Of a stretch of 64,000 nucleotides of DNA, positions 1,807 to 62,538 are shown in pieces. Under the pieces are notes generated by a model. It ran no database searches and was not told where the DNA came from. It worked only from the letters and a program-made list of their open reading frames with translations. The DNA comes from an uncultured virus (IMG/VR IMGVR_UViG_3300021256_000093). Its lineage: Duplodnaviria; Heunggongvirae; Uroviricota; Caudoviricetes. The position numbers and the translations under genes were made by a program. How positions within the stretch are numbered: the stretch's first letter is position 1; each line of letters begins with the position of its first letter. The stretch lies in IMG/VR virus record IMGVR_UViG_3300021256_000093; one strand, written 5' to 3'.

Positions 1807-1808
1807 AA

Positions 1809-2078: not shown

Positions 2079-2081
2079 ATT

Positions 2082-2291: not shown

Positions 2292-2296
2292 ATTTA

Positions 2297-6795: not shown

Positions 6796-6815
6796 AATAA
6801 TTTAAAATATAATAA

Positions 6816-7280: not shown

Positions 7281-7285
7281 ATAAT

Positions 7286-7897
7286 ATGAAAACAATAAAT
7301 CAATACATACAAGAAAAATTTGAGATAAATAAGAATACAAAGATTATATATAATTATTTTCCTAAAACAAAAGATGAACTTAGGAAGATATTAGAGGAAC
7401 GATTAGCAGAAAATAAGAATGCTAATTTAAATGATATTGATGTTAGTTTAATAACAGATATGGATTTCTTATTTGAAGATTTAAATCCATATAATATTAA
7501 TATATCTGCTTGGGATGTATCAAATGTTACAAATATGGAATATACGTTTGGTGCATGTACAAATTTTAATTCTGACTTAAGTGGATGGGATGTTTCAAAT
7601 GTTACAGATATGGAATATATGTTTGGCGCATGTACAAATTTTAATTCTGACTTAAGTGGATGGGATGTTTCAAAGGTTATTAATATGGGATATATGTTTA
7701 ATGGATGTGATAATTTCAATTCAGATTTAAGTAGGTGGAATGTAAGTAAAGTTAAAAATATGAAGTCTATATTTAATGGATGTGAAAATTTTAATTCTGA
7801 TTTAAGTAAATGGGATGTTTCAAAGGTTAAAGATATGAGATATATGTTTAACGGATGTGATTCTTTAAAAAATAAGCCAAAATGGTATAAAGGATAA
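7286..7897 (+). CDS. DUF285/BspA-like repeat protein with capsid-targeting-like leader
   Basis: same leader; about five 25-aa WDVSxVxxMxxMFxxCxNFNSDLS repeats. Confidence 0.9.
   Translation: MKTINQYIQEKFEINKNTKIIYNYFPKTKDELRKILEERLAENKNANLNDIDVSLITDMDFLFEDLNPYNINISAWDVSNVTNMEYTFGACTNFNSDLSGWDVSNVTDMEYMFGACTNFNSDLSGWDVSKVINMGYMFNGCDNFNSDLSRWNVSKVKNMKSIFNGCENFNSDLSKWDVSKVKDMRYMFNGCDSLKNKPKWYKG
7511..7860 (+). repeat. 75-nt tandem coding repeat (DUF285 units)
   Basis: units at 7511-7585 and 7586-7660 are nearly identical; more diverged copies follow. Confidence 0.85.
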
Positions 7898-7902
7898 ATT
7901 GC

Positions 7903-8367
7903 ATGAAATCGATAAATCAATACATACAAGAAAAATTCGAATTAAATAAGAATACAAAAGTTTCATTAGGTAATGAATATACATTTAATGGATTTAAAAA
8001 ATTAATTTCATCAGAATTGCATACAACAGAAAATATAAATGATGATATTTTTAAACATATGATTAGCGTATTGTTTAATAATGATAAATCAAAATTAAAA
8101 AATATATCATTTATAAATGTATCAAAAGATAAAGAAGAAATTGATTTTTTTAAAAAACAAATAATTCCAAAAGATAGAGATATATCATATTTTAAAAGCG
8201 CTTATTATATTGATTCAGAAAATAAATTACCAGTATTTCATTATTATAATGTTAGTAAAAAAACAGGTTATCCAAATATGGATATATACCAATATAGAAT
8301 TGGATATAATACAGGCAAAGATATTTTTGATATTTCAACGATTCGTTTATTTAAAATAAATATCTAA
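7903..8367 (+). CDS. hypothetical protein with capsid-targeting-like leader
   Basis: MKSINQYIQEKFELNKNTK followed by a non-repeat domain. Confidence 0.8.
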   Translation: MKSINQYIQEKFELNKNTKVSLGNEYTFNGFKKLISSELHTTENINDDIFKHMISVLFNNDKSKLKNISFINVSKDKEEIDFFKKQIIPKDRDISYFKSAYYIDSENKLPVFHYYNVSKKTGYPNMDIYQYRIGYNTGKDIFDISTIRLFKINI

Positions 8368-8394
8368 TAAAATAAATATAAATATAATATATAT

Positions 8395-9024
8395 ATGAAA
8401 GATTTAAATCAATATATACAGGAGAAATTCGAATTAAATAAGAATACTAAATCATTCTTTACGTATAATTATTTTCCTGAAAGTAAAGCAGAGCTTAGAG
8501 AAATATTAGAAGAACGTTTAAGATATGATAAAAATGCTAACTTGAATGATATTGATGTTAGTAAAATATATTATATGAACAATTTATTTTATGGATTAAA
8601 ACCAGAAAAAATAAATATATCTCATTGGAATATGATTAATGTAAAAAGCATAGAAAATATGTTTTTTGGCTGTGATAACTTAGAATGTGATGTTAGTCAA
8701 TGGGATATATCAGAGGTTCGAAATATGAATGGCGCTTTTGCTGGATGCTATAAATTTAATTCAGATGTAAGTAATTGGAAAGTTAAAAATACAGAAGATA
8801 TGGGTGGACTATTTTGTAGATGTTCAAGTTTTAATCAAGATTTATCAAAATGGGATGTAAGTCATGTAAATAATATGACAAATATGTTTATGAGATGTAG
8901 TGCATTTAAGCAAGACTTAAATAACTGGAAACCTAAATCATTAAAAGAATTTAATAATATATTTAAAGATTGTCCATTACAAAATAATCCACCAAAGTGG
9001 TATGAAAAATTAATTAGAAAATAA
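8395..9024 (+). CDS. DUF285/BspA-like repeat protein with capsid-targeting-like leader
   Basis: MKDLNQYIQEKFELNKNTK; FNQDLSKWDVSHVNNMTNMF; PKWY. Confidence 0.9.
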   Translation: MKDLNQYIQEKFELNKNTKSFFTYNYFPESKAELREILEERLRYDKNANLNDIDVSKIYYMNNLFYGLKPEKINISHWNMINVKSIENMFFGCDNLECDVSQWDISEVRNMNGAFAGCYKFNSDVSNWKVKNTEDMGGLFCRCSSFNQDLSKWDVSHVNNMTNMFMRCSAFKQDLNNWKPKSLKEFNNIFKDCPLQNNPPKWYEKLIRK

Positions 9025-9036
9025 TATATATTATAT

Positions 9037-9813
9037 ATGAAAACTATAAATCAATATATACAGGAAAAATTTGAATTAAATAAGAATACTAAAATTATAT
9101 ATAAATATTTTCCAGTAACAAAAGAAGAACTTAGGAAAATATTAGAAGAACGGTTAGCTAAAGATAAAAATGCTAACTTAAATGATATTGATGTTAGTAG
9201 ATTAGATGATTTGAATGGTATATTTAATCAATTAGATCCATGCGATATTGATATATCACGTTGGGATGTGTCAAAAGTAACAGATATGTCATTTATGTTC
9301 TATAATTGTAAGAATTTTAACTGTAATTTAAGTAAATGGGATGTAAGCAATGTTGAAAGCATGGAATATATATTTTGTAATTGTGAAAAATTTGATGCAT
9401 CATGCTTAGAATCGTGGGAACCAAAAAATATTGATGACTTAGAATATGCATTTTCTGGTGTAAAGAAATTTAATGCAGATTTATCAAAATGGAAAACTAA
9501 TAAAGTAGAAAATATGATTTATACTTTTAAAAATTGTGAAGAATTTACTGGAAAGGGATTAGAAAATTGGAATATGTCTAGAGTAAAAGGAACAGTTGGA
9601 ATGCTTTATAATTGTAAAAACTTTAATATTAATGTAGGAAACTGGAAACTTGATAAAGTAGAACATTCACAATTAATGTTTTATGGTTGTAAATCATTTT
9701 TAGGTAAAGGCTTAGAAAATTGGAATTTAAATAATAGAGCCATACATCAAGTAAATATGTTTGATAGTACTCCTATAGAAAAGAAATTACCAAAATGGTA
9801 TATGACGAAATAA
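9037..9813 (+). CDS. DUF285/BspA-like repeat protein with capsid-targeting-like leader
   Basis: same leader; multiple W(D/N)VSxVxxM repeats; PKWY. Confidence 0.9.
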   Translation: MKTINQYIQEKFELNKNTKIIYKYFPVTKEELRKILEERLAKDKNANLNDIDVSRLDDLNGIFNQLDPCDIDISRWDVSKVTDMSFMFYNCKNFNCNLSKWDVSNVESMEYIFCNCEKFDASCLESWEPKNIDDLEYAFSGVKKFNADLSKWKTNKVENMIYTFKNCEEFTGKGLENWNMSRVKGTVGMLYNCKNFNINVGNWKLDKVEHSQLMFYGCKSFLGKGLENWNLNNRAIHQVNMFDSTPIEKKLPKWYMTK

Positions 9814-9833
9814 TATATAAGAAAAACTAATAT

Positions 9834-10328
9834 ATGAAAACATTAAATAATTTTATTATAGAAAAATTTGAATTAAATAAGAATACAAAGAAAACAATAT
9901 CTTCAGATGTAAATATATTTTATTTTTTTGGAAAGGTTCAATTAAATCAATTTCTAGAATCAATATATTTGTTTAAAGCTGCTTACCATGTAGAAGATAT
10001 TATTTTTAGTTTAGATCAACAATTAACTGGAAATACTATTTTTTGTAGTATTACTGATATAGATAATAACATTTTAAAAGTTGAAAATAGTTATAATGAA
10101 ATAATTAATAAAGATGTATTTAATAAGTTTTTAAATAAATTAAATATGAAAGATACTAGTGACTTAGTATTTCAGAATATAGTAAATAAAGTATTTTTCA
10201 AGCCATATAAATGGTTATATATATGGTATAATAAAGATAAAAATGCTATACAATTACATGTATCTTGTATGGATATGGATAAAATTGAAAAATATAAAAG
10301 TAAAGATATATATTTTAGTACAAAATAA
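9834..10328 (+). CDS. hypothetical protein with capsid-targeting-like leader
   Basis: MKTLNNFIIEKFELNKNTK followed by an unrelated domain. Confidence 0.8.
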   Translation: MKTLNNFIIEKFELNKNTKKTISSDVNIFYFFGKVQLNQFLESIYLFKAAYHVEDIIFSLDQQLTGNTIFCSITDIDNNILKVENSYNEIINKDVFNKFLNKLNMKDTSDLVFQNIVNKVFFKPYKWLYIWYNKDKNAIQLHVSCMDMDKIEKYKSKDIYFSTK

Positions 10329-10822
10329 TGAAAACTATAACTAATATTATACAAGAGAAATTTGAATTAAATAAGAAAACATCCAAATATAGATATTTTC
10401 CTAATAAATTTGAGGATTTAGGAAATATTCTAGATGATAAAATAACTAAGTTTGGATATGGTACTGAAGATAAGCCATTTATTTTAAGTGATATTGATTT
10501 TTCAAAAGTAAATACATTATCAAATGCATTTGATTATATAGATTTTGAATATCTTGATATTTCTGGTTGTAATATTGAGCATATTACTAATTTTAGTGGG
10601 TGTTTTCAAGGTTGTAAGAAATTAAAAAAAGTTATAGGATTTGATACATGGAAATTTGATAAGAATGAATCATATGATTTATCATTTATGTTTTATAGAT
10701 GTACTAATTTATGTGATATAGAAGGATTATATAAATTTAAATATAATAGTGAGCATCATGATATTACAAATATGCTAGAAAGTTGTCCTAAATTAAAAAA
10801 GCCAAATTGGTATCTTAAATAA
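10328..10822 (+). CDS. divergent DUF285/BspA-like repeat protein with capsid-targeting-like leader
   Basis: MKTITNIIQEKFELNKK; LSFMFYRCTNL; PNWY; TAATG overlap. Confidence 0.8.
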   Translation: MKTITNIIQEKFELNKKTSKYRYFPNKFEDLGNILDDKITKFGYGTEDKPFILSDIDFSKVNTLSNAFDYIDFEYLDISGCNIEHITNFSGCFQGCKKLKKVIGFDTWKFDKNESYDLSFMFYRCTNLCDIEGLYKFKYNSEHHDITNMLESCPKLKKPNWYLK

Positions 10823-10836
10823 TTGATTTATAAAAT

Positions 10837-10869
10837 AAAAGCTCTATACTTAAGTATAGAGCTCTTTTT
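10837..10869. terminator. bidirectional intrinsic terminator
   Basis: AAAA-GCTCTATAC-TTAA-GTATAGAGC-TCTTTTT between convergent genes. Confidence 0.85.
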
Positions 10870-10887
10870 ATGTTATTATTTTTGTTA

Positions 10888-12816
10888 TTATTTTGTATTC
10901 ATTTTAAATAATGCTATTGGTAAGAATTTATTTTTATATCCTTCATGAATAAATCCTAATTTAGCTTTCATCTTAATAGTTAATGTTTCATTTTTAAATG
11001 ATGAATCACTACCAACTTTTAATACTAATCCTTTCGCATAAGTAGTATAGATATGATTACTTTCAAAATAATATAAATAATTACTTGAAGATGTATGGTC
11101 TCTAAATCCTACTTTTGCTTCTTCTTGTATACTTTCTGTAATATCTTCACCATTTGAATTTAGTATTTGTAAGTATGAAAATCTTAATACAGGTATATAG
11201 TTACCAAAATTTCTAGCATTAAGTACACCATTATTTAAATAGATATTATTTTCATCACTATTGTTTCCTTGGTAATATTTAACATTTAATATAATCATAT
11301 CATCTTCTTGTAATATTGATACATTTGGATTACCTTCATACCATGAAAACATGTCTTCTGTAATAGGTGTTAATAATTCATCTGGATATTCAACAATTTG
11401 GTCTGTACCTGTATCAAACATATCAGATTCTTCTTTCATGACAACGCCTTTAAGTACTACATAGTTATTATATATTTCTAATATTCCTGCTTCTGAATCT
11501 TTTGGAGCATTATGATAGCTTCTAATTTCAATAGGTAAAGGACGTGATAATGATGGTATATGAACATTATAAGAATCACCAGTTTTTGTTACATTAATAT
11601 TATGGTCATATTTTTCCCATAGCCATTTATAATGTGAATGTCCACAGAACCAGAAATTATTAGGATATTTTTTCATTAAGTTTTCAATAAATTCTCCTTG
11701 GTCACCACGTAAGACATCACTGTGATATCCATAATTTGCATAAGGATAATAACTGTCATTATTTGTCATGAGGTTATTCCAATTATGATAATTACCTGCT
11801 TTATCTGGTAACATTAGATGAGTAAAGATAAAGCAACGATGACCTTTGTTTTCTTCTAGAATATCTGCTAAGCATTGTAATGTTTTAGGATGATATAAAT
11901 GCAAGTCATTATATGTATCAACTTCTGCATGTACTAATAAATCTTCATCTGATAATAAATCTGCATCATGAGTATAATAATTATCAGGATTATTCCAACC
12001 ATATTCTACATTAAGGAATATAAATACATCATAGAAATTATCTGTTTTATTATTATAGTATTTCTTAAAGTAAAAACTAGTTCCTTTAGTATTTCCATCA
12101 GACTCACCTTTTCCATCGTAAGGTTCATTATCATCAAAATAATGTATATCATATTCATTATTCCTATCTATTGCAGATATAGAATTCCATAAGTCATGAG
12201 CGATATATTTAGGTTTAGTATCATGATTTCCTGAACATGTGAATATTGATGTTTCTGGAGCATACTTATCACAGCAATATTTATAGTTTGAAATATGAGC
12301 AGGATCATCTGTTGATATATCACCTGAGCAAGCAATGAAATCTACATTTTGACTTTTAAAATAATTTAAAGCATTGATTAAGTCTTCTGAATATTCTGCA
12401 CCATCATCACTACCTGTATCTGGGTCTTGATCACTAGTATCATAGTCATTATAATGAACATCACTCATTAATCCGATTCTATATATTGGTTCTTGCTCTA
12501 TTTTATTTTTGATTTCTTTACTTCTAATCAAGTTATTAGTACCAGTATTAAAATAGTCTAAATAAACTGCTTCTTTAGGAAATACAAAGAATTCTGGATG
12601 TTCATAGTTATGGTCAAGTGGAAGATATTCTGATAATGCATTATGGTCTTTATCAGCATAGTATACTTTCATATTATCAGTTACACAATCTTCACTAGTT
12701 TTAATTTCCTTATTTTGTTTATTTGATGATAAATAAAGACTATAGTTATCTTCACCATAATTATATATTTTGAGCATATCTAATTGCTCTTTATACGTAT
12801 CAAATAATTCTATCAT
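10888..12816 (-). CDS. calcineurin-like metallophosphoesterase with extra domains
   Basis: SDVH, SGDI, GNHD, FTH and GHSH motifs. Confidence 0.88.
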   Translation of the reverse strand: MIELFDTYKEQLDMLKIYNYGEDNYSLYLSSNKQNKEIKTSEDCVTDNMKVYYADKDHNALSEYLPLDHNYEHPEFFVFPKEAVYLDYFNTGTNNLIRSKEIKNKIEQEPIYRIGLMSDVHYNDYDTSDQDPDTGSDDGAEYSEDLINALNYFKSQNVDFIACSGDISTDDPAHISNYKYCCDKYAPETSIFTCSGNHDTKPKYIAHDLWNSISAIDRNNEYDIHYFDDNEPYDGKGESDGNTKGTSFYFKKYYNNKTDNFYDVFIFLNVEYGWNNPDNYYTHDADLLSDEDLLVHAEVDTYNDLHLYHPKTLQCLADILEENKGHRCFIFTHLMLPDKAGNYHNWNNLMTNNDSYYPYANYGYHSDVLRGDQGEFIENLMKKYPNNFWFCGHSHYKWLWEKYDHNINVTKTGDSYNVHIPSLSRPLPIEIRSYHNAPKDSEAGILEIYNNYVVLKGVVMKEESDMFDTGTDQIVEYPDELLTPITEDMFSWYEGNPNVSILQEDDMIILNVKYYQGNNSDENNIYLNNGVLNARNFGNYIPVLRFSYLQILNSNGEDITESIQEEAKVGFRDHTSSSNYLYYFESNHIYTTYAKGLVLKVGSDSSFKNETLTIKMKAKLGFIHEGYKNKFLPIALFKMNTK

Positions 12817-12830
12817 TGTAAAATAAAAAT

Positions 12831-13919
12831 TTATAATATTTTTGTAAATAATACTTCTATATATTTTTTACTATTATATAATTGGTTTATTAATTTATTA
12901 GTTTTTTGACACAATGATAAATATGAATTCTTACTTTTTATATATTTATTGAATCCTAAAATAGTATTATAGAAATCATCCGTATTTACATATATTGCAC
13001 ATCGTAAGTCATATAATGTTTGCTTAGAATTGATTTTAATATTTTTAGCAATATTTTCTGGTAAAACCAAAACAGTATTATTAGAAAACATATCTAATAA
13101 TGTATAATTAAATTCAGTTATATTATCAAAATCTACTATAAATTCTGAGTCATTAATAACTTTATTATATTCTTCAAAAGATATAGATGGATATATATTT
13201 ATTTTAGTTGTATCTATAATAGAAGTATCTATATTAGTATATGGAGATGGTTTTCCATATTTATCATTGAATAAGTTCTCAATACCTAATGTTTGAATTG
13301 ACTTATTTATACCATATATCTTATATATTAAATCTGATGAAGGATTGTTTTTCTGTAATATATTGAACATACTTAAGTATAACGTAAAATCCATTTTTAA
13401 ATTATTACTAGATATCATAGATATTTGATGGATTTTATGCGTGATACTATTATTAGGAATATTATATACTAATCCAATTTGTATTAATTTATTAGTATCA
13501 TTTATAATATTTTGAATTTCATTATATATTTTATCCTGAGATTCATATATACAAATTTTATGACAAGAATTAAACAATGTATTTATATAACTACTACTAA
13601 AATTATTATACATTTCTTTAACTGAATAATAATGGCAAAATAAAATTTTCTTTATTTTTATGTTTTTTATTAATACATTGTATATATTAATATTAGACTT
13701 AGGTAATGAATGAATAAATATATAGTCAAAATTATCATTGATATTATTTATAAATTCATCTGATGTATTAAATTTCAAATACTGTTCATTATCTTCTGAT
13801 ATTATATATGTTTGTAGAGTAATTTCTGGAAAATATAAGTTTATTCCTGTTTCAAATTCTTTAATATATCGAAGTATGTGCTTGTTTTTTGTATCGTTAA
13901 AAATCTGTAAAATCTTCAT
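12831..13919 (-). CDS. T4 alpha-glucosyltransferase-like GT-B protein, catalytic motifs apparently degenerate
   Basis: colinear resemblance to T4 AGT from memory: DYIFIHSLP~DILIINSVP, FCHYYSV~YQHDHSV, YGINKS~EGLERS, FNYTLLD..NNTVLVL~LEYTHLE..CGTIPVF. Confidence 0.6.
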   Translation of the reverse strand: MKILQIFNDTKNKHILRYIKEFETGINLYFPEITLQTYIISEDNEQYLKFNTSDEFINNINDNFDYIFIHSLPKSNINIYNVLIKNIKIKKILFCHYYSVKEMYNNFSSSYINTLFNSCHKICIYESQDKIYNEIQNIINDTNKLIQIGLVYNIPNNSITHKIHQISMISSNNLKMDFTLYLSMFNILQKNNPSSDLIYKIYGINKSIQTLGIENLFNDKYGKPSPYTNIDTSIIDTTKINIYPSISFEEYNKVINDSEFIVDFDNITEFNYTLLDMFSNNTVLVLPENIAKNIKINSKQTLYDLRCAIYVNTDDFYNTILGFNKYIKSKNSYLSLCQKTNKLINQLYNSKKYIEVLFTKIL

Positions 13920-14030
13920 AAAATAATTAAGTACAAATACCTTTATTTAAAAATAATATTAATATATTACTTAAATTTAATCAGCAAATATTCCTATCTT
14001 ATCATATAAATATATTTCAATATAAATAGT

Positions 14031-14501
14031 ATGAAATGGTTAAATAGTGTAAAGCCAGTAACAGCATATTTGGCTAGTGGGTGGTTTAATCCACCACAAG
14101 AAAGTGCAAGACAAGATATTTTGAAAGTCTTGAATGATAATGAAATATCATATTTTAGTCCTAAAGATGAAGTAGAAGTAAAATCAGATGCAAGCAAAGA
14201 AGATAGAAAGGCTGCATTTGATGCTGATACTCAAATTATCAAGCATTGTGATTTTGTAATTGCAAGTACAGTAGGCAAGGATATGGGTACTCTTATGGAA
14301 ATGGGTATGGCATATGCTTGGGAAACTCCATTTATTGTTTATTTTCCTAATCCTGATAATTTACCAGTTAATCTTATGATTGCAGAATCAGCTTATGCTG
14401 TAGCAGGTAGTGTAGAGGAATTAGATAATATTGTAAAGACATTAAAGAAAAATAGTTTTGATTTTTCTAAGAGACTTGAATATAATGGTAATATTGAATA
14501 A
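14031..14501 (+). CDS. nucleoside 2-deoxyribosyltransferase / nucleotide N-hydrolase family
   Basis: YLASGWFN, DxxxIxxCDFVIA, DMGTLMEMGMAYA (catalytic Glu). Confidence 0.88.
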   Translation: MKWLNSVKPVTAYLASGWFNPPQESARQDILKVLNDNEISYFSPKDEVEVKSDASKEDRKAAFDADTQIIKHCDFVIASTVGKDMGTLMEMGMAYAWETPFIVYFPNPDNLPVNLMIAESAYAVAGSVEELDNIVKTLKKNSFDFSKRLEYNGNIE

Positions 14502-14504
14502 AAA

Positions 14505-15074
14505 ATGATTAATAGTAATTTAACAGAATTTTTATATAATATTGATAATTTACGAAATTTAGTTCGTTATCAAACTGCTCCAAGAGTTTCTTCTGAAACT
14601 GTTGCTGAGCATTCATATTTTGTATCAGTATATGTATTAAAACTTCATGATTATTATAATTTTGATTTAGCAAAAACATTAGAAATGTCATTATTACATG
14701 ATTTTAGCGAAGTATTTATTTCTGATGTTCCTCATCCTATTAAGTCAAAGTATACTAAGATTAATGAGGAATTGACTAAAGCCGAGCATGAAGTAAATAA
14801 GACATATATATCTGAGGAATTTTCAAATAATCTTGAAGAGTTTAATAATCTATCATCCCCTGAAGGTATTATGGTAGCATTAGCTGATATTTTATCAGTA
14901 GTTACTTATTCTAAATATGAGATTAATTTAGGTAACTCAAAATATATGAAAGATGTTTATAATAATGCTGAACGTAGATATAGAGAAGTTATTAAATTAG
15001 CTGAACCTTATCTTAAAGAAAGTTACACATCTACACAAATTTTAGCTTATATTAATGAATTTTATAACTTATAA
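14505..15074 (+). CDS. HD-domain 5'-deoxynucleotidase (YfbR/DatZ-like)
   Basis: RY...ETVAEHSY...LLHDFSEVFISDVPHPIK...LAD. Confidence 0.9.
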   Translation: MINSNLTEFLYNIDNLRNLVRYQTAPRVSSETVAEHSYFVSVYVLKLHDYYNFDLAKTLEMSLLHDFSEVFISDVPHPIKSKYTKINEELTKAEHEVNKTYISEEFSNNLEEFNNLSSPEGIMVALADILSVVTYSKYEINLGNSKYMKDVYNNAERRYREVIKLAEPYLKESYTSTQILAYINEFYNL

Positions 15075-15079
15075 TAATT

Positions 15080-16060
15080 ATGCCAAAAAATAATAATTTA
15101 CAGCCAGCAACTTTGCCAATGCCATTGCGTTTTGGCGAAAAACCAACAACTGAGTTTGTCAATAATCTAGATTCAATTAAAGTAACTTTATTGAATTATC
15201 CTACTATTGAACAATTGATATCTGCTATTATTCCATTTACTAATGCAACATGGAATGATGATCCTATCAAAGTAAGAGATAATATGACTATGAAAGAAAA
15301 GATTCAAAATGTATATGATGCATTTCATTTTAAGTATCTTCCACAGTCATTGGAAACAGTTAATCTTACTTTCTTAATTCAAGGTATTGATTTGCAAACT
15401 GTAACTCATATTCTTCGTAATCGTGTTGGATTTACATTTTCTGCAGAATGTAGTGGAGATAAATGGTGGACACATAAGAGAAGTCTTGTTCCAGCAAGTA
15501 TTGAAAATAGTGATGAGTTTTATGAGAGATATAAGAAATTAACTGAAGAATGTAAGCAATTGTATTGTGATATGATTGACTCTAAAAAGATTTCAATTAT
15601 GGATGCTCGTCATATTCTTAATCGTAATCTTGAAACATATTATCTTGTAAATGTTAATTTCTTGAGTCTATTGAATTTCTTTAGACAACGTATTGATAAA
15701 CAAATTCAACCAGAAGAAGATAATGTATTAGCATATAGGCTATTATTGGAAACTATTAAGAAAGTACCATTTGCAATTAATTGTATTAATATTCATTCAC
15801 CTGCTATGCATTATATTAAGATGGCACGTACAGGTAAAGCAACTAATCTTTATTTCCCTGATAAAGATTCAGATACATTTGAATGGAATGAAAACGATTT
15901 TATTTACCAATGTACTCGAGATGAAATGAATGGTACTAATGAGAATGCAACTAATCATTTTAATGAAGTATTAGCTGAATTTGAAAAGGAATTAAATGAA
16001 GCAGTTTCTCAGGCAAAAGCAAAACTTAATGAATTAGCACAAGGTGAAATCCTATATTAA
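15080..16060 (+). CDS. divergent ThyX/Thy1-like flavin-dependent enzyme
   Basis: LETVNLTFxIxGI, THILRNR (for RHR), DARHIL, NFLSLLNFFRQR; the canonical SQR is replaced by SGD. Confidence 0.7.
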   Translation: MPKNNNLQPATLPMPLRFGEKPTTEFVNNLDSIKVTLLNYPTIEQLISAIIPFTNATWNDDPIKVRDNMTMKEKIQNVYDAFHFKYLPQSLETVNLTFLIQGIDLQTVTHILRNRVGFTFSAECSGDKWWTHKRSLVPASIENSDEFYERYKKLTEECKQLYCDMIDSKKISIMDARHILNRNLETYYLVNVNFLSLLNFFRQRIDKQIQPEEDNVLAYRLLLETIKKVPFAINCINIHSPAMHYIKMARTGKATNLYFPDKDSDTFEWNENDFIYQCTRDEMNGTNENATNHFNEVLAEFEKELNEAVSQAKAKLNELAQGEILY

Positions 16061-16086
16061 TATTATAAATAAATAATTGTAATATT

Positions 16087-16971
16087 ATGTTCATAAGTAT
16101 TGAAGGCGTTGATAGAACAGGAAAAGATACAATTTTGTCAGCTTTAGATAAAAAAACATGCTGGCAAAATTGTAATATGATGAGAGGACCTGCTGGTTGT
16201 CTTACATATGATAAAATATATAATAGAGAAACAAAGCAAAGATATGATGAAGCATTATCTGTAGCTAATACTATTAAATCAACTACTCATTTAATAGTTT
16301 ATCTTTATGCAGATATACAAACTATTACAAAGAGATTAAATGATGAAATAGAAGAAGGTGGTTCAGGATATTTTGCACCAGAACCATGGAGTATTAAAGA
16401 TGTATTAGAATTATATGAAAAGAATATTGATTTCTTATATACCCCTGAAGAAGTTATTAAAATAAATACAGGTAAATATAATGTTGATGATTGTGTATCT
16501 ATGATTATTTCTAAAATGGAAGAGATTAGAGAAAAAGATATGCAATTATTAATAGATACTAATTCAATCCATATTAAATCTCCAAATAAAGGTGATTTTA
16601 ATTATGTACAATATTTACCATTTTCACGAGTATATACTAAATCGGAGTTATTGAATAAGTGTTTTGATATTACTGTTGATAGACCATACTATGAAATGCT
16701 TGAAAAATCATTAGAACATTTATTATATGAAAGAGAATTAGGATGGATTAATGATAGACAATTAGTATTAACATCTAATGATTGTATTCCATATATTCAA
16801 TTAAAGATAACAAATGAATGTATAGAATGGTTTATTAGTCAAAGAAGTTGTGATATTAAAAAACATAAATTAAATGATATATTATTTTTCAAGTATTTTA
16901 CATATAAGAAATTTGTAGATAAAAACTTTAAAATTCATTATTCATGTTCATTTCCTCATGAATATATTTAA
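16087..16971 (+). CDS. dNMP (thymidylate-type) kinase fused to a minimal thymidylate-synthase/dCMP-hydroxymethylase-fold domain
   Basis: N-terminal IEGVDRTGKDT P-loop; C-terminal C-x19-R spacing, QRSCD-x6-ND, PHEY. Confidence 0.72.
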   Translation: MFISIEGVDRTGKDTILSALDKKTCWQNCNMMRGPAGCLTYDKIYNRETKQRYDEALSVANTIKSTTHLIVYLYADIQTITKRLNDEIEEGGSGYFAPEPWSIKDVLELYEKNIDFLYTPEEVIKINTGKYNVDDCVSMIISKMEEIREKDMQLLIDTNSIHIKSPNKGDFNYVQYLPFSRVYTKSELLNKCFDITVDRPYYEMLEKSLEHLLYERELGWINDRQLVLTSNDCIPYIQLKITNECIEWFISQRSCDIKKHKLNDILFFKYFTYKKFVDKNFKIHYSCSFPHEYI

Positions 16972-16982
16972 AATTTGATTAT

Positions 16983-17013
16983 AATGAGATGACTTAAATC
17001 ATCTCATTTTTTT
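16983..17013 (+). terminator. intrinsic terminator
   Basis: AATGAGATGA-CTTAAA-TCATCTCATT followed by a T-run. Confidence 0.8.
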
Positions 17014-17026
17014 ATTTTTATATATA
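17013..17026 (+). promoter_or_regulatory. putative class II (late-type) promoter TATTTTTATATATA
   Basis: exact 14-mer repeated upstream of structural and leader-tagged operons. Confidence 0.55.
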
Positions 17027-17047
17027 TAATATAATTAAAATATATAT

Positions 17048-18652
17048 ATGAAGAAATTTATTGATTATAGAGATCCTGAAATTGTTTCTGAGGTATTTAA
17101 AACAGTAAATGAAAAACTTAAAAAAGAATTAAATAATCAACAGCAAATTAATGAAGTAGTTGATGATGATGACGAAAAGGATTTCTTTTTTAAGAATATA
17201 ATTGTTTTTACAAATGATAGAGATTCTAAGTCAAATAAGACTCTTAAAAATCTTGAAGAAGCAATTAAAGGTAAAGGTGTAAAATTATATCCATTTGTTG
17301 CAGAAGAAATTGATTATAAAGCAACAGATACAAAAATTAAGTTCAATGATAATGTAAATAAGTATACTATTGATGAACAATCTAATGTTGATACAATTGT
17401 TATTACTCGTTTAGGTGCACAAGATTCTGATGAATGTATTGAATTAATTAAAGAACTTCAAGATTGGGGTTTTTTCGTTCTTAATCCTATACAAGCTGCG
17501 CAAAAAGCATCTAATAAGTATACATCTGCAGTATTAATGGAACGTTATAATATTCCTCAACCTAAATTTACATTATTATCTAAAAATGATATTGATAAAG
17601 GCGAAGAATCATTACAAAAGAAACTTAAGTTAATATATAAAGATATTGGTGAAGACGAAGATGCAGATAAGAAAAAAGAATATGTAGTTAAGATTCTTGA
17701 TGGTCATGGTGGTACTGGTGTATTTATGGTTACAGGAAAAACTATATTAAGTATTCTTCAAGCCATATTTGCAATTGACCCTGAAAGAGAACTATTATTA
17801 CAAAAGAAAGAAGAAGCAGATGGCGGTGATATTCGTGTACATGTTCTTACAATGCGTACTGAACAAAAGATTCTCGCATCTATGAAACGTGTTAAGATAT
17901 CTGGCGATTTCCGTTCTAATGTATCTTTAGGCGCTACTGCTGAACCTGTAACATTAACTCCAGAGCAAGAAGAAATTGCATTGAATGTTGCAAAGATTTC
18001 TGGAATGCCATGGTGTGCAGTAGATATTATGCCACTTAAAGCTGGTTCTAATCCAGAGATTGGCGATAATGTAGTGCTTGAATATAATGCTTCTCCAGGT
18101 ACTGATGGTATTTCTGAAGTCATTGGTGAAAACTTTATGGGAATTTTATTAAAAGAAATTAATGATATTAACCAATTAGTATTAACACCAAAATCTATTG
18201 GTTATATTGAAAATGTTCATTTTACATTATCTGATGAATCTGAAACTGAAGTAGAATTTGAAGCTAAATTAGATACAGGTAATGGAGCTAAAGCATCAAC
18301 TATAGGATGCGAAAAAGTTGAACAAAAAGGACATAAGGTTATTGCAACTATTGATGGACAAAAATATACATTTAAATTAGAAGGACAATCAAATGCTATT
18401 GTTGGACAAGTTACTGAAGACCGTCCTACAGTATTAATACCATGTATTCGTATTGGTTCTCGTAAATTATTAAATGTAGAGTTTGCATTAGTTGATAATC
18501 GTAATAAAAAACAAAAAGTTCTTATTAATAGAGATGTTATGAGTAAGATGGGATATTTGATTAATCCTGCTAAAAAACATATCTTAGATGATGATTTATT
18601 ATATGAATTCAATCAAAGGGCTTTAGAAAAAATTAGAAAAAATAAAGAATAA
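17048..18652 (+). CDS. RimK-like ATP-grasp ligase fused to a retropepsin-like protease domain
   Basis: NKY, VVKILDGHGGTGV, DIRV, DFRSNVSLG, AVDI, LEYNASPG; C-terminal AKLDTGNG and VLINR. Confidence 0.88.
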   Translation: MKKFIDYRDPEIVSEVFKTVNEKLKKELNNQQQINEVVDDDDEKDFFFKNIIVFTNDRDSKSNKTLKNLEEAIKGKGVKLYPFVAEEIDYKATDTKIKFNDNVNKYTIDEQSNVDTIVITRLGAQDSDECIELIKELQDWGFFVLNPIQAAQKASNKYTSAVLMERYNIPQPKFTLLSKNDIDKGEESLQKKLKLIYKDIGEDEDADKKKEYVVKILDGHGGTGVFMVTGKTILSILQAIFAIDPERELLLQKKEEADGGDIRVHVLTMRTEQKILASMKRVKISGDFRSNVSLGATAEPVTLTPEQEEIALNVAKISGMPWCAVDIMPLKAGSNPEIGDNVVLEYNASPGTDGISEVIGENFMGILLKEINDINQLVLTPKSIGYIENVHFTLSDESETEVEFEAKLDTGNGAKASTIGCEKVEQKGHKVIATIDGQKYTFKLEGQSNAIVGQVTEDRPTVLIPCIRIGSRKLLNVEFALVDNRNKKQKVLINRDVMSKMGYLINPAKKHILDDDLLYEFNQRALEKIRKNKE

Positions 18653-18677
18653 TATAAATAAAATTAATTAATTTTAT

Positions 18678-19691
18678 ATGAAACGATTAATAGAATTTAT
18701 TAATGAAGAGCTTAATTCTTCAGAAAAGAAAGCAATCAAAAAATTATATAAATTTTTAAATGAACATACAGGTTCATTAGAAGAGTATGTTGATGCTTTA
18801 AATGATGCTTTAAAAAATGCGGATAAAGGTGATAACGCTAAATATTGGATGGTTGCAATTAAATACTTATTTGATGGTGAACATGGTAAAGATTATAAGG
18901 CGCAAAATCATGTTGCAGTAAAAGTAACAGAGCTTTATCCTACACAATCTGAAATTGATATTGAAAATTCAGCAAAATGGATTACTAAAGATTGGGGAGC
19001 AAAAGGAGCAGGAGATATGTTTAAGAAAGAAGCATTTGGTAAGAAATTCCCAGTCCCTGTATTAGTTTATAAAACAGAAGGAAAATATTGGATTATTGAT
19101 GGACACCACCGTTGGTCTCAAATTGGATTAATTAATAGAGATGCATCATTAGATTGTTTGGTTGTTACAGGTCCTGAAAAAGTTCAAGATTTCTTAAAAA
19201 TCACTCAAGGTGCTATTGCTTCTGTTTTAGCATCAGATAATAAGAATAATGGTAAGAAAGGTGATAAACAATTACCTGTAGGTTCAGCACAACCAGAAAA
19301 TAATATTTTTGGTTCAGCACTTAAAGGAGATAAGCTTAAAGAAAGAATTTCTAAAATGTGTACTGAAAATCTTGATAATTGTAAATTATTACAAGAAGCA
19401 TTAACTAAAGCTAATGTTATTGATAAATCAGGTAAATTTATTAATGAAAGTCAAGACAATCGTAAAGAATTTATTGATAGTTTATCTGAACATGTTATGA
19501 AAAATCGAGATAAAATGCTTGAAGCTAAACAAAATCCACCTAAGTGGGCAGAACCTCGTCCAGTAATGCCACAATCTGATGCAGCAGGTCCTAATGATCC
19601 TAAAAGTGCAAAAGATGGTAGTCCAGAAAATGAAGGTTCAGCATTATATAAAATATTACACAAAGGTAAATTCCCTGATATTGAATCATAA
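18678..19691 (+). CDS. ParB/Srx-like domain protein with capsid-targeting-like leader
   Basis: MKRLIEFINE leader; LYPTQ and WIIDGHHRW. Confidence 0.75.
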   Translation: MKRLIEFINEELNSSEKKAIKKLYKFLNEHTGSLEEYVDALNDALKNADKGDNAKYWMVAIKYLFDGEHGKDYKAQNHVAVKVTELYPTQSEIDIENSAKWITKDWGAKGAGDMFKKEAFGKKFPVPVLVYKTEGKYWIIDGHHRWSQIGLINRDASLDCLVVTGPEKVQDFLKITQGAIASVLASDNKNNGKKGDKQLPVGSAQPENNIFGSALKGDKLKERISKMCTENLDNCKLLQEALTKANVIDKSGKFINESQDNRKEFIDSLSEHVMKNRDKMLEAKQNPPKWAEPRPVMPQSDAAGPNDPKSAKDGSPENEGSALYKILHKGKFPDIES

Positions 19692-19698
19692 ATATAAT

Positions 19699-19730
19699 AA
19701 AAATGGAAGACTTAAGTCTTCCATTTTTTT
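19699..19730. terminator. bidirectional intrinsic terminator
   Basis: AAAAATGGAAGAC-TTAA-GTCTTCCATTTTT between convergent genes. Confidence 0.88.
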
Positions 19731-20202
19731 ATGATTTAACTATCCAATCTGCTACTGATGTAACCAATGGCGCAATAGTTTTAAATCTTACATCAAATCC
19801 TATTGATTCTACCCATCCCTTAGCTGTTTGGAATACTTCATAAGATTTAAACTTTGGATTAGGATTAATATCTAAGTCAATATATTTAATTTTTAATCCT
19901 GCATCTTTAAGTTCATTTGCTAAATTAATTGATTCTTCTACTTCTTTTAACAAACGAACTTGTCTTACTCTTTCTTTTTCTGTTTTCCAACGTCTAAATA
20001 TACAATGACCGCCATGACCAGGATTATATAATACTATAACTGTTGAATATGTTGTATGATTATTTTTGTTTTGTGAATCAGTTCCAATTATAATTTCTGT
20101 ATCTTTATGTTCTTTTGTATATTCTTTTATATATTCAGTTATATTTGGTAATTTTTCACCAGTAAACTTTTTAAATGTTACGGTACCTATTGTTTTTTCC
20201 AT
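19729..20202 (-). CDS. RNase H-like YkuK (DUF458) family protein
   Basis: IIIGTDSQ, RLLKEVEES, IDLDIN, VAD. Confidence 0.8.
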   Translation of the reverse strand: MEKTIGTVTFKKFTGEKLPNITEYIKEYTKEHKDTEIIIGTDSQNKNNHTTYSTVIVLYNPGHGGHCIFRRWKTEKERVRQVRLLKEVEESINLANELKDAGLKIKYIDLDINPNPKFKSYEVFQTAKGWVESIGFDVRFKTIAPLVTSVADWIVKS

Positions 20203-20235
20203 AATTAATTATTAAACTTTATTAAAAATATTATT

Positions 20236-21090
20236 TTACATTTTTCTAAAACTTGTCTTTAAATCAAATCCATGTGATATAATCTTTGTCTTATTATCAG
20301 GATTAACTATCGGTTCTTGTTTTACACTCCATAAGAAATTCTCGATATTAATATAAGTATTCAAATCCATTAAGTCGTTATACCAATACTTAAGAATATT
20401 ATCATTAAGCTTATTAAAACAAATATTTGTAATATACTGTGCATCCCGTGTTGAATTTCCAACATGCTTGATTTTATTTTCATTTCTATATTCAAAATAT
20501 ATTGTCTGAGAAATTAAATTATCATTTGCTTCAATCCATACAGGAGCATTCAACTTCATAAATACTTCTCTGCATTCATATTTCCATGCAAACTTTTTAA
20601 GATAATCTCCAATCATTTTAGATGAACTTGGAGGTATAATTTTCTTTGGTATCTTTATATAAGGATGATTTAATGCATAATCATTAATCATTTTTGATAC
20701 ATAATGTTGTATATATGCTTTTTGTTCTTCATTATTTTTTAATGCGCATAACTCATCTACAAATTTATGCGTAAGTGTAGAAGTTATATATTCTGTATTA
20801 TAAGTTATAGTTTCTACACATACTCCAATAACTGGCTGTGAATATACATTAGGAAATACACCAAATATATAATTATCAAACCAAACATATCCTTCAGTTT
20901 TATATTGTCTTGTATATCCTGGATTAGGAACATATCGATTTCTATCTGAGTAAAATTTACCTGTATTATCTTCATACAATTTCTTATATGATTCATACAC
21001 TTTTACAGGTTCACGAACATATACAATATCTGCTTCATAGTCATGCGTGAAGAAATCGTAAAAATCTTTATACTTACAAATTATTTTCAT
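20236..21090 (-). CDS. conserved phage hypothetical protein
   Basis: MKIIxKYKDFYD N-terminus and KIISHGFDLKTSFRK C-terminus, a pattern I recall from large phages. Confidence 0.75.
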   Translation of the reverse strand: MKIICKYKDFYDFFTHDYEADIVYVREPVKVYESYKKLYEDNTGKFYSDRNRYVPNPGYTRQYKTEGYVWFDNYIFGVFPNVYSQPVIGVCVETITYNTEYITSTLTHKFVDELCALKNNEEQKAYIQHYVSKMINDYALNHPYIKIPKKIIPPSSSKMIGDYLKKFAWKYECREVFMKLNAPVWIEANDNLISQTIYFEYRNENKIKHVGNSTRDAQYITNICFNKLNDNILKYWYNDLMDLNTYINIENFLWSVKQEPIVNPDNKTKIISHGFDLKTSFRKM

Positions 21091-21117
21091 ATATTATTTA
21101 AATATTAAACCATAAAT

Positions 21118-21169
21118 AATATAGATATAAATATTCAAAAATTCATTTAAAATAATATTTTTATATATA
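21118..21169. promoter_or_regulatory. back-to-back class I (leftward, 21118-21146) and class II (rightward, 21156-21169) promoter motifs
   Basis: ATGAAT-N17-TATATT on the minus strand; TATTTTTATATATA on the plus strand. Confidence 0.55.
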
Positions 21170-21190
21170 ATGAAATGTTAATAAAAATTA

Positions 21191-23659
21191 ATGCAAGTTA
21201 AATATTTATATATAAATAATTATCAATATAGAATAGAATATATACCATATAATGAAAATTCATTAACAGATAATGAAACTAAATCATTTGTTATGTTAAG
21301 AAATTTTTCATTTATGAATAATGTAGCAATTGATAATAATATATATTTTATTGAGAGAGATATATTTGATAAGTATAAACATCAATTAAAGTTTAATGAA
21401 AATAATATTTTAGTCTTTCCATCTAATCAGGATAATATGTTTTATTCAACAGACTATAAATTATTTAATGATGAATTAACTGACCAAGATTTATACTTAG
21501 AAAATAAAGACAATGAAAATAGTCCATTAGATGGATTAATGGTATATAGTATTTATAAAAAACATATTGATGGTGATAAATATTATTTTACAGAAGATAA
21601 AATTAAATGTAATAAAGTTAATATATATCATCCGCAAATTCATAATACTCGTAATTTTATTATTCATATTGAAAATGTAATAAATAATATTCATTTCCAT
21701 TATTATTGTAGGACTATGAATTCATTATTTACTGAATATCAATATAAGAATGAATATGATTACTTACAATTAAAAGATACTATTAAGAAAACATATAATA
21801 GTAATACAGAATATAGAAATAATCATAATATATATTCAGAATATGTTACTTGCTATATTCCTGATATTAATGAATTATTTGATAGAAATTATGTATTTAA
21901 TGAAGAAATTGGTGATTATGAATATGATTATGATTGGTATTATCAAGAAAATTTAAATATTGTTGAAACTACAGACAATCAAGATTTCATTAATAATATT
22001 ATCATTAATATAGATAATCAAAATAATAGAATTGAAGATAATAATAGTTCTAATATTGAAAAACAATTTGTACCTATAACATTATTTACTCAACCTAGTA
22101 TATTAATAGAAGTTGATGAAGATGAAAATAATGATGGTAAGTTTAGTAAAGATGAGAAAGTATTTAAAAAAGTATATTTTAAATATTTTGAATCTATTGA
22201 TTATAGTTATAATATTGTTCCATTGAATATTTCATTATATCCATATACACATCTTGATAATACAAACCATTATTATGTATTAGATCCAGATTATTTACCT
22301 AATACTTGTTCATTTACTAATCCATATAAATTTACTATTTATAGTATTTGTGATTTTGACTTAAATGGAAAAATATCTATCTTAACTAGATTCCATTATC
22401 CTAATCAAGAATCATATGAATCAATATTTGGTAGTACTAATAGAGCATTAACCGAAGCATATTGTTTTTATCATCATATTATTAATAGAGATATATTCTT
22501 TAAAGATTTCAATACATTATCTGAAGAATATAAAGAAGAATTAGATGAAATAAACAAATTAGACCATGTTACTGATGATAATATTAAGTTTTTAGTATCT
22601 AGTGGATTAGCCGTACCTAATAAACGTAAAGGAATTGGTTTTAATAGTACTAATTATGAAGATTATCCAATAGATGATGATTATTATTTGAATATATTAA
22701 AGAAATCTAAATTTGAAGCGTTCTTAGAAGAATATAAAGATGAGTACCAAGTAAATATTGATTTCTTTGGATTTAAAATACAAATTGCTACTGATACTAA
22801 ATTTAAAAATGTTATTCTAGATAAAGAAATTAGTTTAATAGAATTATCTAATAAACTAGATTTATTAAATTATATAGATAATGAAGCAATAGGTTTTTCT
22901 CCATTTAATGCTCTTCAAAATGGTTTATTCTCATTTAATTTGACAGGTATATTAACTGATTATGCACAATTACCAGATTTATTAATTTGTAAGATTACTT
23001 TTATAGATAGATTAATTGGTAATAATATACAAAGTAATGAAGTATTTATTACCAAGGACCAGTTTAAGTATATTATACAAGTAAATAATGTACCAAGATT
23101 AGATTCAGTTAAGGAACTTAATCTTAAATATAAAGAAACTATATTAGAAAATAAAAATAATATGATTGAATATAATTTAAATAAAGATAATTCATTTTTA
23201 GATATTGTAAATAAAATATCTAATACAGGAAATAATACTGCAGTTAAAGAAGAATTATTAGATTGGTATGAAAATTATAAATCTGATAAGTTTTCATTTG
23301 TAAATAATGTAAATTGTATTATTAAGAAAGATGAAGTAAAGAATACATATCAAACAAAAAATAATAATATACAGATTATTTATAAGCCAATTTTCTTTAA
23401 GACATTTGAATTACCTATGTTACAAATTAGAAAGGGTAAAACACAAAATATAGGAATTGACTTAACTGAATATATTTCTAAGACAACTTCATTTATATTA
23501 AAGATAAATAATGAAGTATATTATGAAATAGGCCGAAATAGTAATTATGTATTATTTACAGTTAATACATTAAATTATGAAGAAGATGGTGGTGTATATG
23601 AAATATATGACCAAGATAGTAACTATATTACTTATGGTAATTGGACATTAATTTTATAA
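21191..23659 (+). CDS. hypothetical protein, probably structural
   Basis: 822-aa ORF heading the baseplate operon. Confidence 0.7.
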   Translation: MQVKYLYINNYQYRIEYIPYNENSLTDNETKSFVMLRNFSFMNNVAIDNNIYFIERDIFDKYKHQLKFNENNILVFPSNQDNMFYSTDYKLFNDELTDQDLYLENKDNENSPLDGLMVYSIYKKHIDGDKYYFTEDKIKCNKVNIYHPQIHNTRNFIIHIENVINNIHFHYYCRTMNSLFTEYQYKNEYDYLQLKDTIKKTYNSNTEYRNNHNIYSEYVTCYIPDINELFDRNYVFNEEIGDYEYDYDWYYQENLNIVETTDNQDFINNIIINIDNQNNRIEDNNSSNIEKQFVPITLFTQPSILIEVDEDENNDGKFSKDEKVFKKVYFKYFESIDYSYNIVPLNISLYPYTHLDNTNHYYVLDPDYLPNTCSFTNPYKFTIYSICDFDLNGKISILTRFHYPNQESYESIFGSTNRALTEAYCFYHHIINRDIFFKDFNTLSEEYKEELDEINKLDHVTDDNIKFLVSSGLAVPNKRKGIGFNSTNYEDYPIDDDYYLNILKKSKFEAFLEEYKDEYQVNIDFFGFKIQIATDTKFKNVILDKEISLIELSNKLDLLNYIDNEAIGFSPFNALQNGLFSFNLTGILTDYAQLPDLLICKITFIDRLIGNNIQSNEVFITKDQFKYIIQVNNVPRLDSVKELNLKYKETILENKNNMIEYNLNKDNSFLDIVNKISNTGNNTAVKEELLDWYENYKSDKFSFVNNVNCIIKKDEVKNTYQTKNNNIQIIYKPIFFKTFELPMLQIRKGKTQNIGIDLTEYISKTTSFILKINNEVYYEIGRNSNYVLFTVNTLNYEEDGGVYEIYDQDSNYITYGNWTLIL

Positions 23660-23679
23660 AATAACTATAAATATTAATT

Positions 23680-24024
23680 ATGATAGATCTTGCTATTGAT
23701 TCACGTATATTTTTAACAGAAGAAATTGATTTAGCTGTTCAAGAATTAGATGTTTTATTTAATACTGAAAATACTCAGTTATTAGGTATGCCTGATTTTG
23801 GTAGTAACTTCGAACAATTTCTATGGCAGTTATATCCATCTGTCAATGAACTTAAAAAATATATAGATGAATTAATTTTTAATAAAACTATTTTTTTGAA
23901 AAAATTTGAAGTTAATATTGAAGTACAAATATTAGATGGAGAAACTAGAAAAATATATTTAGTAGGAATAGAAATATTTGATGGAACTGGTGAGCAAAGA
24001 CAACGTGTTTACCAATTTAGATAA
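23680..24024 (+). CDS. baseplate wedge subunit, T4 gp25-like
   Basis: LFNT...MPDFGSNxxxFLW motif, 114-aa size, next to a gp6-like gene. Confidence 0.75.
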   Translation: MIDLAIDSRIFLTEEIDLAVQELDVLFNTENTQLLGMPDFGSNFEQFLWQLYPSVNELKKYIDELIFNKTIFLKKFEVNIEVQILDGETRKIYLVGIEIFDGTGEQRQRVYQFR

Positions 24025-62500: not shown

Positions 62501-62538
62501 ATGAACTAAATTTATTAAGTTATTTTTAATTATATATA

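Follow-up and report, generated by a model that had tools for sequence, protein, structure and literature searches.

The window analysed here is a stretch of 64,000 nucleotides (nt) from an uncultured virus of the Caudoviricetes (IMG/VR record IMGVR_UViG_3300021256_000093), and the element under study is an open reading frame (ORF) at positions 16087 to 16971, whose product of 294 amino acids (aa) is a P-loop nucleotide kinase joined to a real but half-size thymidylate synthase (TS) fold, termed mini-TS below. The window is AT-rich, with a GC content of 21–33%, and it contains phage genes (those for RecA, a muramidase and a Tad3 homologue, and an ORF of 2,632 aa). Since close homologues of the target ORF were found on contigs reaching 287,758 bases, the source of the window is probably a jumbo phage. 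The ORF and its two parts were delineated as follows.

16087–16971, plus strand: kinase and mini-TS fusion ORF, ATG start, 294 aa
16087–16536, plus strand: P-loop nucleotide kinase domain (YorR/thymidylate-kinase-like), residues 1–150, from structure alignment and weak family matches
16105–16125, plus strand: P-loop GVDRTGK, residues 7–13, with E6, G7, D9, R10, G12 and K13 invariant in alignment A1
16537–16968, plus strand: minimal TS-fold domain, residues 151–294, phrog_35203, without a Pfam family, from profile and structure searches

A half-size thymidylate synthase fold joined to a kinase

An AlphaFold2 model of the full 294 aa, built from 20 homologues, had a predicted local distance difference test score (pLDDT) of 91.6 and a predicted template modelling score of 0.80, and homologues of the ORF numbered 22 at E ≤ 1e-3, 19 of them being 294–308 aa long. 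The initial annotation of this DNA had proposed a kinase fused to a minimal TS-fold domain, pointing to the strings RQLVL, DCIPYIQL, FISQRSCDIKKHKLNDILFF and SFPHEY; all four were verified in the ORF, and the proposal itself was borne out by structure scans and conserved-residue alignments.

The 144 residues of the mini-TS domain were modelled alone with AlphaFold2 from 20 diverse family members, giving a pLDDT of 88.9. A Foldseek search with this model identified the predicted structure as a TS fold: all 50 of the top PDB matches listed belonged to the TS family, with 223 at E ≤ 1e-3, and the first was the dCMP (deoxycytidine monophosphate) hydroxylase AfhB of HY126 (9iqu, E 8e-5). Additionally, an independent scan of 48,161 representative PDB chains placed members of the TS superfamily in all of the top seven positions (Z 8.9–7.6). 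The best chain was T4 dCMP hydroxymethylase (Z 8.9 over 123 aa, 18% identity), followed by three ThyA chains (8.5–8.7), the flavin-dependent dCMP monooxygenase 9iqc (8.5), a plant dihydrofolate reductase–TS (DHFR-TS, 7.9) and MilA (7.6), with unrelated chains beginning at Z 7.0 and extending downward. Foldseek against BFVD matched the domain to phage TS and gp42 proteins.

Profile comparisons led to the same superfamily. A profile of 20 diverse mini-TS family members (A2), searched against 177,635 PDB sequences, had T4 dCMP hydroxymethylase as its top match (E 0.025) with Cys148 and the RS, ND and H positions aligned, and hhalign of the mini-TS profile against T4 gp42 gave E 4.9e-4. The mini-TS profile also recovered longer relatives (179–217 aa, and one of 302 aa) encoded just downstream of ThyX-like genes, which NCBIfam scored as thymidylate synthase (E 1.3e-16 for the 302-aa form and 4.6e-4 for a 198-aa form); judged by their sequences, these make up a size series from 302 through about 200 to about 150 aa that connects ThyA with the minimal form. 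The match of A2 to gp42, the graded longer relatives and an alignment anchored on ThyA (A7, below) together establish the homology of mini-TS to TS. A single-sequence search of PDB sequences returned no TS match, only four chance matches (E 0.53–2), and an ESM Atlas search gave no usable match. A related-locus search found nothing in viral contigs with alignment A3, and kinase-only relatives alone with A1.

The N-terminal domain has the P-loop nucleoside monophosphate kinase fold with its GxxxxGK motif. Residues 1–152 aligned with YorR of the Bacillus subtilis phage SP-beta (3kb2/2axp) at Z 15.5 (VIA-align; rmsd 2.5–2.6 over 142–143 aa, 24–25% identity), while thymidylate kinases (TMKs), adenylate kinases and deoxynucleoside kinases were all tied near Z 11. 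Family matches were weak (Pfam Thymidylate_kin, E 0.022; PHROG thymidylate kinase, 3e-7; NCBIfam dTMP kinase, 1.1e-3) and fell below the curated thresholds, with PF02223 reaching 14.9 of the required 27 bits and TIGR00041 18.6 of 83.25. The domain resembles YorR and the deoxynucleoside monophosphate (dNMP) and thymidylate kinases in fold and P-loop, but differs from them in lying under every curated cut-off and in being joined to a TS-like domain. Kinase homologues of about 145 aa without a fusion partner were common in an exhaustive search.

The nucleotide pocket and the missing parts of the fold

The residues of the mini-TS pocket were located with alignments A6 and A7, the latter comprising Escherichia coli ThyA as first row and 14 other rows.

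16687–16692, plus strand: Y201-Y202, with Y201 in the ThyA Y94 column, invariant in A6 and A7
16756–16761, plus strand: R224-Q225, with R224 in the ThyA R126 column, invariant in A6 and A7
16783–16785, plus strand: Cys233, counterpart of the ThyA C146 and gp42 C148 nucleophile, invariant in A1, A2, A6 and A7
16840–16854, plus strand: QRSCD, residues 252–256, identical to ThyA Q165–D169; R and S invariant, the D256 position being D, N, E or H in the family
16873–16878, plus strand: N263-D264, with D264 in the ThyA N177/gp42 D179 column; Asp in every member seen
16954–16965, plus strand: PHEY, residues 290–293, with H291 corresponding to ThyA H207 and Y293 to ThyA Y209; H invariant

In ThyA numbering, the invariant columns of A7 are Y94, R126, C146, R166, S167 and H207, whose window counterparts are Y201, R224, C233, R253, S254 and H291, respectively, with D264 at the position of N177. 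Across mini-TS members at approximately 16–30% identity the Cys, the Arg-Ser pair, the Asp at 177 and the His are all invariant, and the invariant residues coincide exactly with the nucleotide-binding and catalytic residues of TS. The initial annotation had placed a Cys 20 residues before the Arg of an RSxD motif and an Asp eight residues after its Asp; both were confirmed, the spacing from Cys233 to Arg253 being 20 residues and Asp264, with Asn263 just before it, following Asp256 by eight. The T4 record shows the same Cys-to-Arg spacing for gp42 and 'RND' at the matching place, and the spacing is exactly 20 in 10/10 distant fused forms. Thus the catalytic Cys with R166-S167 at +20 is present, and the Asn at 177 that would denote specificity for deoxyuridine monophosphate (dUMP) is replaced by Asp264, as in gp42 (D179).

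In the family alignments the catalytic Cys is universal, and so is the Asp at the N177/D179 position, which occurs in every row of A2 and A6 and in 14/14 non-ThyA rows of A7. A regular-expression tally of this Asp (58 sequences) is circular, since the pattern itself demands Asp, and the claim rests on the alignments. Asp also occupies the position in six sequences beyond these 58, namely five that failed the expression and one further locus ORF. At the position of ThyA L143, A7 places S230, with an invariant D232 two residues on, in a part of the alignment that is gapped.

About 120 of the 264 residues of ThyA have no counterpart in the 144 aa of mini-TS. The lost parts comprise most of 37–90, approximately 96–110 and 130–142, and all that follows the H-x-Y motif, with nothing after Y209 (A7). 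The domain had been described as about half the usual length and as lacking the folate part; the length was upheld, and the loss proved wider than claimed, as it includes everything after H-x-Y. The ThyA folate-binding elements are absent from mini-TS in A7, and we take the folate-binding E58, W80 and W83 and the C-terminal lid to lie in the lost parts. The retained arginines are presumably phosphate-binding, Y94 is presumed to act as the base, and H207 and Y209 are assumed to sit at the 3'-OH of the deoxyribose.

Guidance on how such positions may be read comes from a study of related enzymes. According to that study (PMC13326640), C146 is the catalytic Cys, N177D leads to a preference for dCMP, L143 correlates with a methyl or hydroxymethyl product (an acidic residue there marking the hydroxymethylase type), and D169N is the mark of flavin-dependent 5-hydroxy-dCMP synthases. 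It also states that cognate dNMP kinases are required for the product to enter DNA, as for RB69 gp48 and DLP3 gp80 (PMC13326640).

The position of D169 divides the family. It is Asp in the window clade ('RSCD' in the window protein, P0001–P0019 and P0021) and Asn, Glu or His elsewhere; the combined D169N and N177D signature is therefore absent from the window protein (D256) and present in the type found in Geobacillus phage GR1 and in many others. By the D169 rule, the QRSCD form of the window appears to belong with the one-carbon-transfer enzymes and not with the hydroxylases, and the Asn forms look hydroxylase-like.

Gene module, phage distribution and neighbouring genes

The fusion gene is the last of four closely spaced genes, followed by a terminator-like hairpin.

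14031–14501, plus strand: nucleoside 2-deoxyribosyltransferase (NDT)-like gene, module member
14505–15074, plus strand: HD/YfbR-like 5'-deoxynucleotidase-type gene, module member
15080–16060, plus strand: ThyX-like flavoprotein gene, 26 nt upstream of the target, Pfam Thy1 E 3.1e-17
16983–17008, plus strand: terminator-like hairpin and T-run, 12 nt past the target stop; consensus scan, 4 sites against 1.5 expected

The gaps between the NDT-like, HD, ThyX-like and kinase–TS genes are 3, 5 and 26 nt, and the hairpin at 16983–17008 would close a four-gene unit spanning 14031–16971. A ThyX-like gene lies directly upstream of mini-TS, often overlapping it, in 8/8 of the loci retrieved with mini-TS (the window, L001, L007–L011 and L093; L008, L009 and L011 form a near-identical trio). 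The neighbours of the module in phages include DNA-replication genes, for example those for the DNA polymerase III alpha subunit (Pol III alpha) and RNase H. In L093, which represents an independent mini-TS subfamily, a MazG-like ORF comes after the ThyX-like/mini-TS pair, and then an ORF of 338 aa (1382–2398, plus strand) that by eye resembles inosine monophosphate dehydrogenase or guanosine monophosphate reductase.

The ThyX-like family comprises at least 703 proteins, is highly conserved and stands far from canonical ThyX (profile match to Thermotoga maritima ThyX, E 5e-4). The window member has 326 aa, of which the 191-position Pfam Thy1 model ends at residue 230, and the extra residues, approximately 100, make up a C-terminal extension that is strongly conserved. 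Cys124 and Asp127 are invariant near an R-x-R motif, at positions that we assume to correspond to Ser88 and Arg90 of ThyX. No further Thy1 or TS match was found among the ORFs scanned in the 64 kb window.

Searched exhaustively, 1.84 billion representatives yielded 121 matches at E ≤ 1e-3, which fall into three groups: fused forms of approximately 276–308 aa, many lone kinases of about 145 aa, and some 20 lone mini-TS proteins of 136–181 aa. The mini-TS family is phage-borne, fused to a kinase or alone, and without a Pfam model; it is spread widely among uncultured phages of 43–290 kb from many habitats, and no publication dealing with a half-size TS or with these ThyX-like proteins turned up in a literature search. 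The sole cultured phage with relatives is GR1, in which two separate genes encode the kinase (146 aa) and mini-TS (151 aa), the mini-TS gene starting on the final base of its ThyX-like neighbour. The GR1 cluster also encodes NDT, HD, an annotated glycosyltransferase, RNase H and a nitroreductase, and its ThyX-like protein and mini-TS are 52% and 34% identical, respectively, to those of the window, the flavoprotein being by far the better conserved of the two.

The type of D169 residue correlates with gene content among the loci longer than 7 kb. A glycosyltransferase (GT)-like gene of about 455 aa accompanies the Asn-type mini-TS in 6/6 loci (the GR1-like L001 and L007–L011) and a nitroreductase-type flavin reductase in 5/6, while both genes are missing from all 13 Asp-type loci; the window, searched between positions 9001 and 24000, yielded no homologue of either kind. 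This association fits glycosylated 5-hydroxycytosine, as a lead only, the six loci being one lineage.

The pairing was also assessed from the side of the flavoprotein, using a reverse sample of 69 ThyX-like viral loci. A hidden Markov model built from A2 found mini-TS in 11 of these loci, and the model rebuilt from A6 found it in 15, always within 6 kb and in 14 of the 15 within 113 nt downstream. Of the remaining 54 loci, 17 were searched as whole records, ten of which hold a kinase and mini-TS fusion of 302–307 aa located 5–16 kb away. In the other seven mini-TS was not found with profile A6, and five of these are genomes of 43–46 kb with an estimated completeness of 99–100%. The ThyX-like enzyme can thus work without a TS-like protein, as these five complete genomes carry it alone. 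The initial annotation had also named the adjacent flavoprotein as a possible partner: synteny in eight of eight loci supports this, and the five complete genomes with the ThyX-like gene only count against obligate pairing. In one of the ten distant fusions, that of locus L087 (record G012), a frame change splits the gene into a P-loop ORF of 91 aa and, overlapping it, an ORF of 294 aa with the TS-like part.

In small phages with only the ThyX-like gene the kinase is instead fused to an NDT-like protein. Such fusions, of 305–348 aa, were seen on viral contigs of about 45 kb (L013, L016–L020, L022–L024, L026, L033, L039, L047 and L079), and L017 has a small MazG-like ORF upstream of the fusion. 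Because the kinase is joined to mini-TS or to an NDT-like protein depending on the phage, the three proteins are tied to one pathway.

Other genes of the window were recorded in passing. Downstream of the target, an ORF at 17048–18652 (plus strand) encodes a RimK-type ATP-grasp ligase with approximately 160 extra C-terminal residues, and is followed at 18678–19691 (plus strand) by one for a ParB-like nuclease-domain protein; this pair is flanked by terminator-like hairpins at 16983–17008 and 19699–19728 (bidirectional) and lies outside the module conserved in other phages. A 332-aa protein at 349–1347 (minus strand) matches the Thoeris inhibitor Tad3 over its first 138 residues (E 3.2e-22), and a full-length bacterial-type RecA in a phage context is encoded at 5332–6375 (plus strand; E 1.5e-124). 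Eight consecutive small ORFs occupy 6394–10822 (plus strand), six of which match the Mycoplasma/BspA-like repeat DUF285 (E 4.6e-7 to 3e-58). The 2,632-aa ORF at 33899–41797 (plus strand) has faint BNR/Asp-box matches only, and near the window end lie genes for a ferritin/rubrerythrin-like protein (60064–60657), a NUDIX hydrolase (61811–62551) and WYL_2 (63079–63357), all on the minus strand.

Proposed reaction and its alternatives

Among characterised proteins, T4 gp42 (PDB 1b49, 6l18) is the closest to mini-TS in both structure and sequence, sharing the Cys nucleophile, the 20-residue Cys-to-Arg spacing, RS-x-D, the specificity Asp and H-x-Y. It differs in its length of 246 aa and in binding methylenetetrahydrofolate, the corresponding helices and C-terminal part being absent from mini-TS, and it is neither fused to a kinase nor adjacent to a ThyX-like gene. 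E. coli ThyA (PF00303) shares the fold, an identical QRSCD and all six invariant residues, and differs at N177, in its large uncovered portion and in the failure of PF00303 and the NCBIfam TS models to match the window protein. Protozoan and plant DHFR-TS, also among the fold matches, offers a precedent for joining a TS fold to the enzyme that acts next on its nucleotide pathway; there the partner is a reductase, and the TS is a full-length, folate-dependent one. RB69 gp48, DLP3 gp80 and HY126 AfhB (9iqu, 9iqc) have a reduced TS fold with N177D and act on dCMP by non-folate chemistry alongside a dedicated dNMP kinase (PMC13326640); they are 217–234 aa long with D169N, whereas the window protein keeps Asp256 and its mini-TS is at least 70 residues shorter.

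Mini-TS appears to be a radically reduced TS-superfamily enzyme of phage base modification, joined to a kinase and tied to a rewired ThyX. It is proposed that mini-TS activates dCMP and takes the substituent for C5 from outside, and that the kinase acts on the same nucleotide, such that the pyrimidine is modified before replication, a reading to which we give slightly better than even credence. We infer dCMP as the substrate, covalent catalysis, an external cofactor, the order of the steps and the partnership with the ThyX-like protein. In such a scheme R224, R253, S254, H291 and Y293 would bind a deoxynucleoside monophosphate, Asp264 would recognise a 4-amino (cytosine-type) base, and Cys233 would attack C6 to yield a reactive C5, with Y201 in place of the general base of TS. 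To our knowledge, all characterised TS-fold enzymes proceed by Cys attack at C6 and subsequent addition of an electrophile at C5. The C5 group would have to come from outside mini-TS because the elements that hold folate or flavin in ThyA, gp42 and the 5-hydroxy-dCMP synthases are deleted, and its likeliest donor would be the rewired ThyX-like flavoenzyme, which is probably co-transcribed with mini-TS, or else a flavin held only loosely. The P-loop kinase would then phosphorylate the same nucleotide towards the triphosphate pool, comparable to the dNMP kinase that acts beside RB69 gp48 and DLP3 gp80 (PMC13326640).

A bolder form of this proposal, which we regard as doubtful, is that the mini-TS core and the ThyX-like flavoenzyme constitute one catalytic machine, a hybrid of two unrelated classes of thymidylate synthase, to which the TS core would contribute dCMP and the Cys and the flavin a one-carbon unit or oxygen, with the kinase channelling the product. 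If true, such a machine would yield an undescribed cytosine derivative in DNA.

Several observations weigh against the proposed reaction. The structural Z scores of 8–9 may be called moderate only; PF00303 was not matched by the target at E ≤ 0.1 or by 20 family members at E ≤ 1, and the NCBIfam TS models do not reach the window protein. The Asp specificity rule is carried over from full-length TS enzymes. Structure matches are equal for dNMP kinases and deoxynucleoside kinases, and the kinase could thus precede the TS-like step. Furthermore, genomes G006, G013, G014, G015 and G016 carry the ThyX-like gene and no TS-like gene detectable with A6, PF00303 also being null in four of these five and in one incomplete record, and the existence of such complete genomes means that a composite two-protein active site is not obligatory.

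The same data can be read in other ways. Mini-TS might be a self-sufficient two-component hydroxylase resembling RB69 gp48 or AfhB that uses free reduced flavin and O2, leaving the ThyX-like protein a separate job. The leading position of AfhB in the Foldseek search and the score of 9iqc speak for this, as do the joint N177D and D169N signatures of many family members (PMC13326640) and the GT-like and nitroreductase genes that accompany Asn-type but not Asp-type loci. However, the window clade has Asp at the D169 position, the two accompanying genes were not found around the target within 9001–24000, the fold has lost the portion in which flavin would sit, and the Asn-type loci represent one GR1-like lineage in which the correlation may reflect a single event; we consider a hydroxylase of this kind unlikely. 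The loss of the cofactor half, with retention of the Cys, Tyr, Arg and His, would also be accommodated by cofactor-free chemistry through Cys addition at C6, for example deamination of dCMP to dUMP that feeds the ThyX-like enzyme. Cysteine adducts accelerate the deamination of cytosine, and mini-TS is dispensable in some phages with the ThyX-like gene, as a supply enzyme would be. Replacement of the zinc dCMP deaminase (PF00383) by mini-TS was not supported by co-occurrence, as the zinc enzyme was present in two of five records with mini-TS and in none of five without it, the opposite of substitution; moreover, the kept counterpart of Y94 suggests chemistry at C5, and we hold a deaminase to be quite improbable.

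Loss of the cofactor site and fusion to a kinase are likewise compatible with a TS-like domain that merely binds a nucleotide and gives the kinase its specificity or regulation, and the residues before the Cys are non-acidic in two distant members. Against this, the Cys, Tyr, Arg-Ser, Asp and His have remained invariant at the low identities given above, and lone mini-TS forms adjoin ThyX-like genes with no link to a kinase; invariance of the nucleophilic Cys in particular makes a purely binding role unlikely, and we assign to it the lowest probability of the readings considered. Finally, the substrate might be another cytosine-type or modified nucleotide instead of dCMP, for example CMP (cytidine monophosphate), as with the structural match MilA, or whatever the ThyX-like enzyme produces, and the kinase could be an upstream deoxynucleoside kinase acting after HD nucleotidase and NDT exchange. 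Deoxynucleoside kinases match the N-terminal domain as well as TMKs do, and kinase–NDT fusions occur. H291 and Y293, however, keep the ThyA positions that we presume to bind the 3'-OH of deoxyribose, and the module stands among genes of DNA replication, Pol III alpha and RNase H included; such a substrate is about as improbable as deamination.

TS-fold enzymes are the entry to nearly all known pyrimidine hypermodifications of phages, which defeat restriction and CRISPR defences. The family illustrates the extent to which a TS fold can be trimmed, as the cofactor half is gone while every nucleotide-binding and nucleophile residue is kept. It thereby raises the question of the source of the C5 substituent, the answer to which may bring to light a DNA base, or a flavin/TS mechanism, that is new, and with a cultured carrier in Geobacillus phage GR1 this question is directly testable.

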